Below are positions 648 through 21,529 of a stretch of 22,008 bases of DNA, piece after piece. The notes under the pieces were generated by a model, which had not been told where the DNA came from, did not search any database, and saw nothing but the letters and a program-made list of their open reading frames with translations. The stretch comes from a virus, in UHGV virus genome UHGV-1547525; one strand, given 5' to 3'. The position numbers were made by a program, and so were the translations under genes. The stretch's first letter is position 1; every line of letters begins with the position of its first letter.

Positions 648-3600
648 TTAGCCACTTAATATTCCCCCATCACGTCGCATATTTAACAGATTGCCCTGCA
701 CCCGCTGATCAACCATCCCCATAAGTGCTTTTATTGCCTGAGGGCCAATCTCTCCATTCTGGCCGTCATTTTGAATAGTGATTTGGTATACAGGGGCATA
801 GGTAATATCTCCGCCTCCATTACCACTTTTACTATTAATAGCTCTGACACCAAGAGAACCATCGGAAGTTCGTGTTAATGGCATAATGGCTTCCGGTCCA
901 GCCTCACCAAAAACACCAGCCCCTTTTGCAAAAGCAAAAAATTGCGGGGAATCATAAATACCGTTCGAATACGTGCTCAATGACGGAGACTCATAAACAC
1001 CGCCCTTTGCATTCGGAATAAATTTACTAATAGCACTCCCGATAGTTCCTAAAATCCCCCCAGAAGAACTGTTACTAATGCTGTCGAAAATCCCAGTAAT
1101 TGAAGCCTTTAATGCCATTCGACTAAGATCCGAAATCACGGAAGTAGCGAAAGAACGAAAATTTACCTTGCCTGTCGTGACAAAATCACCCAGCGCATCG
1201 GTCATCCCATCAAACATCTGAGTCGTGGTTGATTTTATCTGCTCACTGATATCCTTAGTGTCATCCAGCCAGTTATTGAATCCCTGGGAGGCACCACTAA
1301 CCCAGTCTCCTGCCTGAATATCGAGCTGCTCGTTTTTCTGTCTGACAATTTCTTTTTCCCGTTCCAGAGCATCATTCAGAGCCTGCATTTTCTCTTGAAA
1401 AACATGATCTGACATTCCACGGGATTTATCTGCATAGTCACGTTCAAGTTGCAGACGCTGATTGTTATATCCATGTTCAATCCGCAGTAATTCCTGCTGG
1501 CGTTGCTGATTTTTATCGCCAACCCCATAACCAGCAATCTGAATATCATACCCCTGCTGACGATTATCAATCGAAGCCTGCAATGAATCACGCCATGCTG
1601 TTATTTCGGCGGATTCCTTGATTAGCCTGTTATTCTTTTCAATCGCAACATTTTTCTCCATCAACGCGGTTATTTCTTCCCGGTGTAAGAGAAGCGATTT
1701 CTGATCCTGGGTTAATTTCGATGATGGTCGTGACTCTAGGTCGGCAATCCGCTGACGCCACTTAACCAGTTCCTGTTCAGAGGAACTTAATTTAACGGTC
1801 AACTCAGCTTGTGAACTTAGTAACGCATTCTGTTGATTCAGATGATCAATCATTCGTTGGGCTGCATCATCAGAATAACCTTTCGCCTTTGGTTGCTTTG
1901 GATCTTTATAACGCTCATTTATTTGAGCGATAAGATTATTATATTCTTCCTTTGAATACTGATTCTTTAGCTTTTCCAGTTTTGCAAGTTCACTAGCTCT
2001 CTGCTGCTCCCGGGTCTGATATTGTTTTGAAAAGGCATCTGCTCTCTGTCTGAGTTCAATTCCTTCCTGTTGTCGCTTGTTGTAATCGTTTATTGATGAA
2101 TTTAGTACGTCCTGAGCAATTTTTTCTGCTTGAAGTACGCCCAATTGCTGCTTTAATCGTGCCAGCCTTTTATTTTGAGCTCCGCCATCTCCAATGCCAC
2201 CTAACCCGAAAACTCCGGGTCGGGTATTTTTTTCTATTTCATCAATTTGACGGAGAACATCTGAGATTTTTTGATCAAGGGAGGCCTCACGGCCAATATC
2301 CAGCATGGAATCCCATGCCCATTTTGCGGAGTCTGCGACAGCTTTCCATGCAGTCTCAAGATAACCAAGATTTTCTTTAATCTGGTTGGTGCGCTGGATC
2401 ATTGAGGATGAGTATTCTTCTGTCGCAATGCGGGCGGCCTCCTGCTGGTTCCCTTCATCCTGTAGTGCCTTAATCTGGTTATAAGTCGCAAGTGTCAGAA
2501 AATGGTACTGATCATTAAGTTTTGATATGGCACTGACAGGATCCTTTGCAATTTCATTGAAGTCATTAACCAGTTGTTCGGTTGATATTCCTGTTACTTC
2601 GCTCGTTTTTACTATCGCTGTCGTCACTTGCTCCAGCGAACTGCTCGCTACCTTTCCCGAACGCACAAGCTGATTTAATACTGCCGCCGCAGCACCAGTT
2701 GTCGAATCAGCCGCATTCCCGGCACGTTGAGCTATATCGCCCAATTGCCCGCTGGTTGTCCCCAACTGATTTCCGGTAAGAATAAGAGATTTATTAAATT
2801 CGTCCTGCTCCTGAGAGCCTTTATAGTAAGCCAGTCCTAAGACCCCAACGGCTGCTGCGGCCAGGGTAAAAGGATTAATTAATCCCAGCACATAAGAACC
2901 TACACCTTTGATCGCCGGGCCAATCCCACCGAACATATCTTTTAGCTGGCCGCCCTGCTGCATTAACACCATAAATGGCGACTGACCAGTGGACAACCCA
3001 ACAACAATATCCGTCATTTGTGCAGGCAACATGCGCATAGCAAAAGCCGTTTGTTTTGCCGACATTCCGGTTTTGCTTAATTGTGATTGAGTAACCTCAA
3101 GCTCACTCCGCATAGCACGAAGTTTTCCAGAAAGCTCCTCATACATTTCAGGAGAAAGCATCCCCTTAGCTTTTGCTTCATTGAGCTGTTTCTGTTGTTC
3201 TACCAGACGATTAAAAGCAGTTCCGACAGGATCAAGTTGAGCAATCAGACGTTGCAAAGCAACAACCTGTTCATCATGCGCTTTTGCTGCTTCTCGCTCT
3301 GCCTGAGCCTCTCCGGTAAGCTCTCGCCGTGTTTCCTGTATTTTTCGGCTATAATTCTCAAACTGAGAACCATTTATTTTCCCGGATGCAAACGCAGCAT
3401 TAAGTTCATCATGCTGTTGTTCAAGATTTCTTAGCGCCGCAGCCAGAGGGTCGATCTTGTCCAGCATTCTTTGAAAGGCCTGAGCCTGCGCTTCCTGCTG
3501 GGCGGCAGCAAGTTTTCCGGCCTTCTCGGCTTCTCTCTGCGCTTGCGCAACCCCGCTCAATTCCTCTGTGGTTTCATTAAGTTTACGGACAAGAAATTCA

Positions 3601-3881
3601 TATTCTTCTTTATCAATAAGCCCTTTATCGAAAAATTTCTTTAATTCAGAATAGCGTCGACCGACAGTATCAATTGCGGCACCAACTGGATCAATAGCTG
3701 CTTTTAATTTTGCGAGCGCGTTCTTCTCATCTTCTGTTGCCTTAGTCACTTTCCCTGCGCTATTTGCAGCAGTTTCCCCAGCCTGCGTCATTTTGACTAA
3801 TGAGGAGGTCAGATTGTCAGCATTATTTTTCGCTCCAGTGCTATCAATAATTATTGCGAGACGCGAGGTTTGCTCTGCCAT
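648..3881 (-). CDS. H: Tail tape measure protein (lambda gpH family)
   Basis: 1077-aa ORF. Internal [41 protein letters not shown] and C-terminal [13 protein letters not shown]...RRDGGILSG follow the lambda gpH pattern as I recall it. Long coiled-coil-rich body; lies directly upstream of M and L. Confidence 0.9.
3072..3695 (-). repeat. Three tandem ~55-80-residue protein repeats in the tape-measure N-terminal region
   Basis: Tape-measure residues ~63-270 contain three units sharing [IL]DP[VL]..A...L......L...F..G.I....Y......K...T..EL.G.AQA.REA.KA ([11 protein letters not shown]..., [11 protein letters not shown]..., [11 protein letters not shown]...). Confidence 0.5.
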
Positions 3882-3892
3882 TTATTAAAACT

Positions 3893-3923
3893 CCAGACAA
3901 CAAAAAGCCCACCGAAGTGGGTT
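3893..3923 (-). terminator. Intrinsic-terminator-like hairpin in the G-T/H intergenic spacer
   Basis: Minus strand AACCCAC-UUCG-GUGGGCU followed by UUUUUGUUGUCUGG; stem about 5 bp with one mismatch, so moderate. Confidence 0.35.
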
Positions 3924-18249: not shown

Positions 18250-18699
18250 TTACTTTAAACACTGCTCGGTTATGTATTGCTGAGCACCTTCAAGTTGGGC
18301 CTGCATCATTACCAGTCGTTCCCGGAGGGTGAAATAATCCCGTTCAGCGGTGTCTGCCAGTCGGGGGGAGGCTGCATTATCCACGCCGGAGGCGGTGGTG
18401 GCTTCACGCACTGACTGACAGACTGCTTTGATGTGCAACCGACGACGACCAGCGGCAACATCATCACGCAGAGCATCATTTTCAGCTTTCGCATCAGCTA
18501 ACTCCTTCGTGTATTTTGCATCGAGCGCAGCAACATCACGCTGACGCATCTGCATGTCAGTAATTGCCGCGTTCGCCAGCTTCAGTTCTCTGGCATTTTT
18601 GTCGCGCTGTTCTTTGTAGGCGATGGCGTTATCACGGTAATGATTAACACCCCATGACAGGCAGACGACGATGCAGATAACCAGAGCGGAGATACCAGA
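18250..18699 (-). pseudogene. rzpR: Rz (i-spanin) remnant lacking its 5' end and start codon (rzpR-like)
   Basis: From ...[33 protein letters not shown]... through [47 protein letters not shown]...EQCLK the translation tracks lambda Rz as I recall it. The similarity breaks about 7 codons in, and there is no in-frame ATG/GTG/TTG upstream before a TGA. Confidence 0.8.
18309..18494 (-). CDS. rzoR: Rz1 (o-spanin) lipoprotein, embedded in the Rz reading frame
   Basis: 61-aa [59 protein letters not shown]... with lipobox-like VVGC and a proline run, matching lambda Rz1 as I recall it. Embedded in the +1 frame of Rz. Confidence 0.8.
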
Positions 18700-18881: not shown

Positions 18882-19424
18882 TCAAGCTATTTTTTGAGCA
18901 AATGATTCTCGCATGGGAATATATAGGGCATACTCAGCAACAGCCAACCAATTAGCAATTCGCTTTTCGCATGTGCTAAAACACCACTCAGGATGTGCAT
19001 CATTTAGCAATTCAGCCATTTTGCGCTTAGTCATCCCCCGTCCTTCATACCGTTGCCGGAGGACACTAATCAATCCAGGATGCTCTGCCAGCACCTCACT
19101 TATGACTCTATCAATACATAACGCCTCTGCATCAGTACAATGCGCCAGCCAGGTCTTTTGCTTGCCATTGATCATCTCTCGCAAAAACGCTTCCAGCTCA
19201 GGTTTCTCTATTCCCGCTTTTTTCATCCTGCGCAGGGCTTCATTGACGGCTGTTTTCGTCAATTTTTTGGATGCCAGCAACTGGTTAAACATATTTCCCG
19301 TCTTACCGCCGCCAATATACGACCAGCGCCCCCACATGCGCAGTTTTCCCTGAATCCAGACACTTTCCAGCGTGGTGAGACGAAGGTGTTCCCCGCTTTT
19401 GCCTGTATTTGTTGGGTAAATCAT
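18882..19424 (-). CDS. Late-gene antitermination protein Q-like (tentative)
   Basis: 180-aa ORF from ATG at 19424, overlapping the upstream stop (ATGA); the ORF-track start at 19544 is an upstream extension. Assigned mainly by position: last gene before the promoter/terminator-like leader and lysis remnants, after nin-region-like genes. Confidence 0.4.
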   Translation of the reverse strand: MIYPTNTGKSGEHLRLTTLESVWIQGKLRMWGRWSYIGGGKTGNMFNQLLASKKLTKTAVNEALRRMKKAGIEKPELEAFLREMINGKQKTWLAHCTDAEALCIDRVISEVLAEHPGLISVLRQRYEGRGMTKRKMAELLNDAHPEWCFSTCEKRIANWLAVAEYALYIPMRESFAQKIA

Positions 19425-19711
19425 AAATAACCTTCCTTTCTCCAGATTTCTTGTGTGCGAAAAACACCTTCTGCATGCATCAGGCGTAATTCTTCTTTGG
19501 TGTAATCGCTGGTTTTTACCCGCCCGTCGATTAGATCGTGGCATGAGCTACAGGCTATCGCCGCCTGCATATCGTGTGGTTTTGTCGCTGTTCCGCACGT
19601 CCCCGCCAGCCTGTAATGCGCCAGCACAGAGGTTTCGGGATTGTGATTGCAGTAGCCAGGGATTCTGATCTGGCACATCTGGCCTTTAGCCGCTTTACGT
19701 AAATTCACCAT
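19421..19711 (-). CDS. YbcO-like (DUF1364) putative zinc-binding nuclease of the nin region
   Basis: 96 aa with CQIRIPGYC ... CSSCH cysteine pairs. Length and motifs resemble the prophage-encoded YbcO family as I recall it. Start overlaps the upstream stop (TAATG). Confidence 0.55.
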   Translation of the reverse strand: MVNLRKAAKGQMCQIRIPGYCNHNPETSVLAHYRLAGTCGTATKPHDMQAAIACSSCHDLIDGRVKTSDYTKEELRLMHAEGVFRTQEIWRKEGYL

Positions 19712-20310: not shown

Positions 20311-20590
20311 TTCTCAATCTCTCGATGGCGCAGCGCAGCAGATGCCAGTTGTTCAGGCTGACGAATAAAGTATAAATAAACTGGCTATGGTGTAAAGCCC
20401 CACATAGCATGAACAAACACTACATATCAAATAGCTGGTACAAGGATAGAAATACGACATTTATTATTAAAAACGATTAGATAAATTACATTTTAATGTT
20501 ATGCAAAAGTTCTTTTTTATCATAACATTTCAATAAAAGCATTACAGATGCAATCATCCCGTCATCATCAATTATTTAAGGTGGTTAAAC

Positions 20591-20683
20591 ATGGAAAATA
20601 ACAAGTTCGCACATCTCGCTCCTTTTTTATCCGTAATCCTTTTCGCTTGTTTTTTTTATATGGGCATTATTTTTATAAAGTAG
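20591..20683 (+). CDS. 30-codon small hydrophobic peptide ORF (hypothetical)
   Basis: ATG preceded by AAGGTGG at about 8 nt. Translation MENNKFAHLAPFLSVILFACFFYMGIIFIK contains one ~21-residue hydrophobic stretch. Lies in an AT-rich intergenic island; not in the ORF track. Confidence 0.3.
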   Translation: MENNKFAHLAPFLSVILFACFFYMGIIFIK

Positions 20684-21080
20684 CCACATGATAAGTTGCT
20701 GGAATCATATTTCCCACTCAAGTCATTAACATTTGATAAGATATATCTAAAAGGACGCCTTTACATTATTTATGTGTATATAATTTATTTATATACACAG
20801 TAAAGGCATCCTGGGAAAATATTTATCGTTAAAAAATACATCATAAATAATTAAGCTGAAATTTCAGAACACAACTAATACACACAATAAGGTTCAGTAA
20901 CAATAATCTATGTGGACTACATCGAGATTTTTTGATTAAACTTTAATAACTTATTCCTAACACACAGAATGCATAAACTAAAAGTAAAACAAATAGTTAT
21001 ACGAAAAACAACCATATTTATTATATCTTCTCCTCTAATCAACATATCAATTATGTGTTTCATAACAGCTTGACATAACC

Positions 21081-21115
21081 CTCAAAAACACGCATTTATA
21101 ATGCATGTTTTTGAG
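21081..21115. promoter_or_regulatory. 15-bp inverted repeat (14/15 match, 5-bp spacer) overlapping the TATAAT element and abutting the Shine-Dalgarno of the cupin-like gene
   Basis: CTCAAAAACACGCAT-ttata-ATGCATGTTTTTGAG; an upstream TTGACA at 21070-21075 and TATAAT at 21097-21102 are 21 bp apart. Confidence 0.5.
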
Positions 21116-21124
21116 GAGGTGGTT

Positions 21125-21463
21125 ATGACACACAAGAGAATTCCTAAAGATTGGGTAATCAAACGCTCAACTCCGTTCTTCACAAAAGAGAACGTACCTT
21201 CAGCGTTATTAACACATCATAATACAGCAGCAGGTGTTTTTGGGCAGTTGTGCGTAATGGAAGGCACTGTAACATATTATGGTTTTACTGATGAGAATGC
21301 TACTGAACCGGAGATAAAAGTAGTCATTAATGCTGGCGCTTTTGCAACAAGCCCACCACAATACTGGCACCGTGTTGAACTAAGCGATGATGCTCAGTTT
21401 AATATTAACTTTTGGGTCGCTCCAGACTTCTCGGGCGAAAAAGTCTATAGCACCAAAAAATAG
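21125..21463 (+). CDS. Small cupin-like protein, DUF1971-like (YeaR/TehB-C-terminal-like; tentative)
   Basis: 112-aa ORF from ATG at 21125 preceded by GAGGAGGTGG; the ORF-track start at 21101 lies inside the palindrome. Size and the ...RSTPFF...H...G...Y...W... pattern recall the DUF1971 family. Flanked by its own control region and terminator; plus strand, opposite to the phage genes. Confidence 0.45.
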   Translation: MTHKRIPKDWVIKRSTPFFTKENVPSALLTHHNTAAGVFGQLCVMEGTVTYYGFTDENATEPEIKVVINAGAFATSPPQYWHRVELSDDAQFNINFWVAPDFSGEKVYSTKK

Positions 21464-21492: not shown

Positions 21493-21529
21493 AGACCCGG
21501 CAGGGCTATCCCCGACGGGTCTCATTTTT
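21493..21529 (+). terminator. Intrinsic terminator after the cupin-like gene
   Basis: GACCCGGCAGGG-CUAU-CCCCGACGGGUC hairpin (two mismatches) followed by UCAUUUUUGU, about 30 nt after the stop. Confidence 0.5.

Follow-up and report, generated by a model that had tools for sequence, protein, structure and literature searches.

A predicted NsrR operator over the promoter of a prophage-borne DUF1971 gene of Escherichia coli

The 22,008-nucleotide stretch UHGV-1547525, analysed at its full length and called the window here, is part of a Rac-type lambdoid Escherichia coli prophage. Near its end it carries a small gene of the DUF1971 family, which is preceded by a near-perfect palindrome. With a probability of about 85%, this palindrome serves the host repressor NsrR as its operator and overlaps the promoter of the prophage-borne gene. 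NsrR is a [4Fe-4S] Rrf2-family nitric-oxide sensor. The reading is based on the match of the palindrome to known NsrR sites, its position, its conservation upstream of the orthologous genes and the presence of nsrR in every host. From the sequence we infer the promoter of the gene, the binding of NsrR to it and its induction by nitric oxide (NO).

The proposed switch would work as follows. When NO is absent, dimeric holo-NsrR would bind the 11-1-11 repeat at 21087-21109 and would thereby block RNA polymerase from the -10 and the start region of a sigma-70 promoter with the -35 TTGACA. NO would nitrosylate the [4Fe-4S] cluster, upon which NsrR would leave the DNA and the gene would be transcribed. 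The leader of the derepressed transcript would be short (about 15-20 nt) and unstructured, and the ribosome-binding site (RBS) would be strong. Occlusion of a promoter by a repressor is an already known kind of mechanism, and the present case is a new example of it, not a new mechanism.

The palindrome as a candidate NsrR operator

A sequence-only reading of this DNA had described a near-perfect palindrome with 15-bp arms, wrapped around a TATAAT and ending at the Shine-Dalgarno sequence. The repeat search confirms it, with arms that are slightly longer, at 17 nt (Table 1). The sequence of 21070-21127 is cTTGACAtaaCCTCAAAAACACGCATTtatAATGCATGTTTTTGAGGaggtggttATG, in which the left arm (21080-21096) reads CCTCAAAAACACGCATT and the right arm (21100-21116) reads AATGCATGTTTTTGAGG. 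C21091/A21105 is the sole mismatch between the arms. The centre is spanned by the TATAAT, while the end of the right arm, GAGG (21113-21116), overlaps the GGAGG (21115-21119) of the Shine-Dalgarno sequence, 5 nt ahead of the ATG at 21125. The window has a single palindrome this good, and neither 300 Markov-1 resamples of it nor 100 AT-rich resamples of equal size contain one. Further copies of the half-site were not found in the window at up to three mismatches. A repeated operator of a phage repressor was rejected because the half-site is unique in the window.

YeaR, the paralogue of the window protein in K-12, is a known NsrR target (PMC5320621), and for this reason an NsrR matrix was chosen for comparison. 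It is a symmetrised weight matrix derived from 26 distinct published 11-1-11 NsrR sites (PMC5320621 Table 4). The central 23 bp of the palindrome match the NsrR site, fitting the 11-1-11 consensus AAGATGCATTT-N-AAATGCATCTT with a score of 20.9 bits. This is the top match in the 22-kb window, the runner-up reaching 12.3 bits. The tail probability of such a score is 4e-8 per position on the E. coli background, at which about 0.2 sites are expected per genome, and 3e-6 on the local AT-rich background. By leave-one-out scores, the site would rank about 7th-8th of the 26, above that of hmp (18.2 bits), and its core is identical to the ytfE site at 19 of 23 positions. Its centre lies 27 nt from the ATG; the corresponding distances in K-12 are 26 nt for hcp, 29 nt for ygbA and 38 nt for ytfE, hmp and tehA. 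The repressor is available in the host, as nsrR was found in all 5426 complete E. coli genomes, in 5298 of them at 99% identity to K-12 or above.

The site is also kept at the orthologous loci. Eighty such loci were fetched, and the 300 nt upstream of each gene were scanned with the same matrix. In 54 of the 80, there is an NsrR-like site that scores 18.6-30.7 bits and has its centre 27-55 nt ahead of the ATG. These 54 comprise every Enterobacterales locus but one, from about 50 species, along with two from Photobacterium; the sole exception among the Enterobacterales is a Leclercia locus whose site has lost 1 nt. Within the 6 kb of each of these loci, the runner-up reaches at most 14.8 bits. 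Many of the orthologous sites, such as AAGATGTATTTTAAATGCATCTT, are one or two bases away from the ytfE operator, and the S. enterica site, AAGGTGTATATTAAATACACCTT, scores 25.9 bits. For most of the Vibrio, Aliivibrio and Shewanella orthologues, an NsrR site was not found within the 300 nt. In two Oceanospirillales, the DUF1971 gene is the second in an apparent operon that stands behind sites of 22-24 bits. The predicted sites agree with the proposal of Rodionov et al. 2005 (PMC1274295), in which NsrR control of a 'tehB homolog' was predicted for all enterobacteria and for Photobacterium profundum.

Some of these loci have features of their own. In Neptunomonas (L074 1966, 3469-3906, 4069), the DUF1971 gene comes after a ferredoxin-like gene behind a 24-bit NsrR-like site, and it adjoins a gene for an Rrf2-family regulator and sufB, the latter with its own 23-bit site. 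In Parendozoicomonas (L067 2315-2361, 2402-2977), it follows a methyltransferase gene behind two 22-bit sites, a gene order that corresponds to a split TehB-like arrangement. Furthermore, a Fur-box-like sequence (e.g. GATAATGAGATTCATTATC; 13-17 of 19 positions as in the consensus) lies just upstream of the -35 in some orthologous promoters, about 20-45 nt upstream of the NsrR site. Its carriers are L003-L024 (Kluyvera, Leclercia, Pantoea, Enterobacter and Pseudescherichia) and L055 and L073 (Photobacterium), and it suggests dual control by Fur and NsrR in those promoters. The element is absent in the Citrobacter, Klebsiella and Salmonella group and degraded in the window (12/19).

Promoter, symmetry beyond the core and other explanations

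The promoter is best delineated from the orthologues. Upstream of the gene, a consensus scan detects a single sigma-70-like promoter in Klebsiella (L033, TTGACG-17-CATATT) and again a single one in Kluyvera (L016, TTTACA-17-TATTTT). Their -10 hexamers both coincide with positions 7-12 of the NsrR 23-mer, and each -35 sits 11 nt before the site. The same -35 position holds TTTACA in Kluyvera and Leclercia, TTGACG in Klebsiella and TTGCCT in Citrobacter; the TTGACA of the window is invariant among all the E. coli alleles examined. In Citrobacter, Klebsiella and Salmonella there is no space for another promoter, because the terminator of the upstream gene directly precedes the -35. Transcription in the window is predicted to start at about 21105-21110, inside the right arm. 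Convincing matches to FNR, CRP or NarL sites were not seen around the -35, as judged by eye and without scoring.

Both candidates for the -10 of the window lie inside the operator (Table 1), so bound NsrR would occlude either of them. The sequence-only reading had taken TATAAT as the promoter element and had offered an operator that occludes it as one role of the palindrome. The location of TATAAT inside the palindrome and the operator stands, but it is remote from the sole good -35, and the hexamer homologous to the -10 of the orthologues is CATTTA. The idea of an occluding operator is itself supported, and the NsrR-like core, the sites kept upstream of the orthologues and the -10 within the core point to NsrR as the repressor. 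Conditional expression, as suggested earlier for a stress-responsive moron, can be soundly inferred.

Table 1. Features around the DUF1971 gene, in positions of the window
Feature	Position	Strand	Description
Full palindrome	21080-21116	.	17-nt arms, 16/17 complementary, 3-nt centre (repeat search)
NsrR operator core (predicted)	21087-21109	.	11-1-11 inverted repeat, AACACGCATTT-A-TAATGCATGTT; shares the exact centre of the palindrome
Outer complementary arms	21071-21080 / 21121-21130	.	TGACATAACC / GGTTATGACA, 9/10; flank the palindrome, cover the -35 and the start codon
-35 TTGACA (predicted)	21070-21075	+	11 nt upstream of the NsrR core
-10 candidate CATTTA (by homology)	21093-21098	+	17-nt spacer from TTGACA; core positions 7-12
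Alternative -10 TATAAT	21097-21102	+	21-nt spacer from TTGACA, without a good -35 of its own; inside the core
Shine-Dalgarno GAGGAGG	21113-21119	+	right arm ends with its first four bases; 5 nt ahead of the ATG
DUF1971 gene	21125-21463	+	112 aa; Pfam PF09313, E=2.3e-26, residues 14-94; RefSeq WP_000149055.1
Terminator-like hairpin	21493-21529	+	stem AGACCCG/CGGGTCT and T-run (RNA fold)

Several observations weigh against control by NsrR as set out here. The left half-site of the window is degraded (AACACG vs AAGATG, 8.5 vs 15.7 bits), so repression is perhaps weaker than at the orthologues. CATTTA is without the conserved final T (position 6) and hence weak, while TATAAT is too far from the -35 for a canonical promoter. 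The consensus promoter scan calls nothing in the window or in another E. coli allele, and the start site and the choice of the -10 hexamer are uncertain. Moreover, NsrR alone does not account for the symmetry past 23 bp, the outer 7 bp on each side (CCTCAAA/TTTGAGG) falling outside its core. At six NsrR sites of K-12, the flanks show no extension of this kind, their matches being at chance level (3-5 of 12 positions). The flanks also covary: in an alignment of 14 sequences from Citrobacter, Salmonella and Yokenella (set A3: L025-L050, L059, L080, L092), 7 of 11 flank pairs are changed on both sides, a result whose measures are reached by 0 of 500 shuffles, with slid controls far lower. The left flank that covaries corresponds to the promoter spacer and is expected to be untranscribed.

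The extension differs from clade to clade. It reads gtgattaa/ttaatcac in S. enterica and ggcatctat/atagatgcc in Citrobacter, with the variants ggcatTtat/ataAatgcc and ggcaCctat/atagGtgcc. It is found in Yokenella and Raoultella planticola as well, and across these two, Salmonella and Citrobacter it measures 8-11 bp per side. The Klebsiella loci compared are without it, as are most of those from Kluyvera and Leclercia. In E. coli, the window was compared with L002, L082-L085 and L093-L098, which are otherwise almost identical to it. The operator is a hot spot of variation among these alleles: across 291 nt there are 28 variable columns, and 16 of them lie in 21080-21117 (Fisher p=3e-9). NsrR scores span 17.8-28.9 bits over at least seven operator alleles. 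Other alleles are nearer to the consensus, those beginning with AAGATGCATTT scoring 28-29 bits and those with AAGGTGCATTT 26.8 bits. The window allele, which about one-third of the roughly 420-470 carrier genomes have in exactly this form (a 91-mer is identical in 142 genomes), retains near-perfect arms despite its degraded left half-site. In allele C1 (L096), a perfect palindrome with 18-bp arms is combined with a consensus left half-site.

The extra symmetry is most simply explained as a mutational by-product of a quasi-palindrome, produced by template switching between the arms, and not as a recognition sequence. Such switching would act on flanks that are little constrained, namely the promoter spacer and the start of the 5' untranslated region. 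It is unlikely that the symmetry beyond the core, together with the outer arms over the -35 and the AUG, is instead a selected second layer of control, maintained by compensatory changes. Such a layer could consist of a supercoiling-dependent cruciform that hides the -10, of a hairpin that silences translation of read-through transcripts, so that only transcripts from the NsrR promoter are translated, or of a scaffold for the cooperative binding of additional NsrR dimers. If it existed, the hypervariability of the operator among the E. coli alleles would represent its tuning. The outer arm pair, which lies beyond the palindrome, is only suggestive as a real feature. Its post-hoc chance probability is about 0.001-0.014; it is identical across the E. 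coli alleles and therefore gives no covariation information, and it is absent from the orthologous loci compared.

The symmetry could also be read at the level of RNA. The palindrome and the outer arms may fold as an mRNA leader hairpin that sequesters the Shine-Dalgarno sequence and the AUG, for translational control or for insulation from read-through. Indeed, the RNA of 21066-21135 folds at -23.3 kcal/mol (z=-5.0), no shuffle among 200 being as stable, in a stem that would bury the GAGG and the AUG. However, the left arm is located between the -35 and -10 of a promoter conserved in the orthologues, so that the transcripts would not contain it. The leader from the predicted promoter holds only the tip of the right arm and is unstructured (z=+0.7). 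A hairpin abutting the RBS, as the sequence-only reading had offered for the leader, is thus unsupported, the left arm being upstream of the predicted (unmapped) start. Double changes do occur among the seven E. coli alleles at two pairs, A:T/C:G at 21084:21112 and C:G/G:C at 21089:21107, but they do not rise above the shuffle controls, in which 229 of 500 reach the same number of pairs, and hence give no evidence for selected pairing. The right arm does not reach the RBS in the clades with long extensions (Citrobacter, Salmonella). Close upstream there is neither a + strand gene nor a called strong promoter, the phage genes nearby being encoded on the opposite strand. A leader hairpin is accordingly very improbable.

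Two further explanations bear on the protein that reads the site, or on whether it is read at all. That the longer 37-bp palindrome is the operator of a different regulator, be it a phage, island or host factor, with the likeness to NsrR sites being secondary, is the least probable of the explanations weighed here. It would suit the symmetry that continues 7 bp past the NsrR core on each side, and the cargo region of the prophage in related strains does encode regulators, e.g. a LysR-type protein. Against this, the sequence of the extension is wholly different between clades (cctcaaa, ggcatctat, gtgattaa, gacagatc) and missing in Klebsiella and in most of Kluyvera and Leclercia, conservation at the level of bases being confined to the NsrR core. 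In addition, the half-site has no second copy in the window, and the neighbouring cargo varies among prophages that share the gene and the operator. It is also highly unlikely that the palindrome has no present regulatory role, i.e. that it is a decaying remnant of an operator or a hypermutable quasi-palindrome before a gene that is constitutive or silent. A left half-site 7 bits below those of other E. coli alleles would fit such decay, as would the poor -10 at the homologous position, the clustering of variable columns in the operator and the loss in the window of the Fur-box-like element of Kluyvera-type promoters. Nevertheless, the 20.9 bits of the site still exceed the validated hmp site and many sites positive by chromatin immunoprecipitation. 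Its right half-site is invariant save for single substitutions in two alleles, L094 and L096, and more than 400 genomes have the coding sequence intact and almost without variation. Control by NsrR thus remains the preferred reading.

Other identities of the palindrome were considered and rejected. An intrinsic terminator was dismissed, as a T-run does not follow the palindrome on either strand and the terminator scan makes no call. A Xer/dif site was dismissed too, the best match to the dif consensus being 13/28, which 97.8% of random sequences of local composition equal. A search against the Rfam RNA families returned only sub-threshold matches to miRNA precursors, which reflect the hairpin shape.

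The gene and its prophage setting

The gene had been labelled cupin-like in the sequence-only reading, a description that is acceptable for a DUF1971 protein with kin among solved structures. These are 3DL3 (Vibrio fischeri 'TehB', E=3.5e-59), 3BB6 (E. coli YeaR) and 3M70 (TehB). The true start is taken to be the ATG at 21125 and not 21101, because the orthologues begin with MSH(L/H)RIP and because of the RefSeq annotation and the RBS. The protein is 41% identical to YeaR of K-12, and it has no methyltransferase domain: the TehB model gives 49 bits, and its cut-off is 303 bits. Its identity to the products of single-copy genes in Kluyvera, Leclercia, Citrobacter, Klebsiella, Raoultella, Salmonella, Vibrio, Aliivibrio and others is 75-82%. 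With the Salmonella orthologue it is 77-79%, and the copy downstream of nhaB-dsbB in S. arizonae shares 77%. The Salmonella orthologue corresponds to STM1808, since it comes directly after dsbB, which is STM1807 (PMC4143323). By sequence, the window gene is the orthologue of STM1808 and is distinct from YeaR and TehB.

STM1808 is counted in the NsrR regulon and given a role in virulence in PMC7527575, which cites Karlinsey et al. 2012; there it is also referred to as an NO-resistance factor. In the translation of the window gene, histidines occur at residues 32 and 82. Karlinsey and colleagues are said to have placed the zinc-binding histidines of STM1808 at H32 and H82 in 2012.

Besides trkG and Rz/Rz1 remnants, the window carries Q-like, DUF1364 and DUF1367 genes on its minus strand. 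A 701-nt segment around the DUF1971 gene is present in 466 of the 5426 complete E. coli genomes, and the gene itself in about 8-9%; it is also found in three isolated phages. It always has the DUF1367 (ninB-like) gene on one side and the replication genes on the other, and its orientation is opposite to that of the flanking phage genes. The neighbouring cargo varies among prophages and includes an MFS/LysR island and Hok/KilA-N, QueH and nuclease genes. The hairpin downstream of the gene (Table 1) was not called by the consensus terminator scan, its loop being longer than 8 nt. Because of its own predicted promoter, this terminator-like hairpin and its variable presence between phage modules, the gene fits the usual definition of a moron.

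The slot just downstream of the gene was observed to hold different genes. It is occupied by a Hok/Gef toxin and a KilA-N protein in two prophages (L083 3650-3775, L084 3643-3774), by QueH in another (L082 4176-4844) and by a PD-(D/E)XK nuclease cluster in a fourth (L085 4180-6701); the slot appears to be a hot spot for cargo in these phages. When 18250-18555 and 18882-19544 of the window are compared with L001 6540-10526, the window prophage appears to be without the holin, lysozyme and TolA-like genes of strain ECCWS199. In ECCWS199 these sit between trkG and the Q-like gene, where the window keeps only an Rz/Rz1 remnant. K-12 Rac has a similar Rz/Rz1 remnant beside trkG. The window prophage is probably defective.

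An unannotated open reading frame at 20591-20683 on the + strand encodes the hydrophobic 30-aa peptide MENNKFAHLAPFLSVILFACFFYMGIIFIK, and its ATG is preceded at 6 nt by the strong RBS aaggtgg. The reading frame lies in an AT-rich spacer of 700 bp, between hairpins at 20490-20534 and 20752-20812; the long AT-rich inverted repeats beside it include perfect 11-nt arms at 20773-20783/20789-20799. It has no match in Pfam or NCBIfam and no RefSeq annotation. The product looks like a small membrane or toxin-type peptide.

A description of the E. coli prophage or phage copy of the DUF1971 gene was not found in the literature search. The case is one in which an accessory gene borne by a phage is predicted to arrive already wired to a stress sensor of the host. 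As the cassette keeps the NsrR operator that the chromosomal locus has in other enterobacteria, an E. coli that acquires the prophage would gain an NO-inducible gene without any new regulation. The Salmonella orthologue is reported to aid resistance to nitrosative stress and virulence. Many of the carrier E. coli genomes come from clinical and livestock isolates, and the gene is a candidate fitness factor in the inflamed gut or the urinary tract. The allelic series of the operator would provide natural variants for relating the strength of an NsrR site to repression. With its extended, covarying arms, the palindrome may also exemplify in nature how template switching shapes the evolution of a transcription-factor site.

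Comparison with known systems

The predicted switch resembles most closely the NsrR operator of STM1808. In both, the 11-1-11 motif lies over the -10 region, the leader is short and the site stands 27-39 nt before the ATG. STM1808 is a chromosomal gene that follows the dsbB terminator, always in the nhaB-dsbB context, whereas the window gene is a cargo of lambdoid prophages and phages. The window also has a different -35 (the consensus TTGACA), a weaker left half-site and other palindrome flanks. With the NsrR operators of K-12 (ytfE, hcp, hmp, ygbA, tehA and yeaR-yoaG), the window site would have its repressor in common; it has the same 23-bp motif and lies about as far from the start codon. 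Unlike the window site, that of yeaR lies 78 nt from the ATG. Lin et al. are said to have found in 2007 that yeaR additionally needs activation by NarL/NarP; a pair of NarL heptamers was not seen in the window sequence by eye, no scan having been made.

The symmetry beyond the core has its own parallel in E. coli genetics, where template switching at quasi-palindromes is an established mutational process. The features of such hot spots recur here, namely an imperfect inverted repeat whose arms are corrected to match one another, a clustering of variation in the palindrome and changes that come in pairs. The pattern seen here could equally reflect selection. Finally, the cassette may be compared with phage morons such as bor, lom and sodC. 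Like them, it consists of a single gene with a promoter of its own, as predicted here, and a terminator-like hairpin, and it is present in only some of the related phages. What sets it apart from other morons is that it carries a recognisable operator of a host stress sensor, inherited along with the gene from a chromosomal locus of the enterobacteria.

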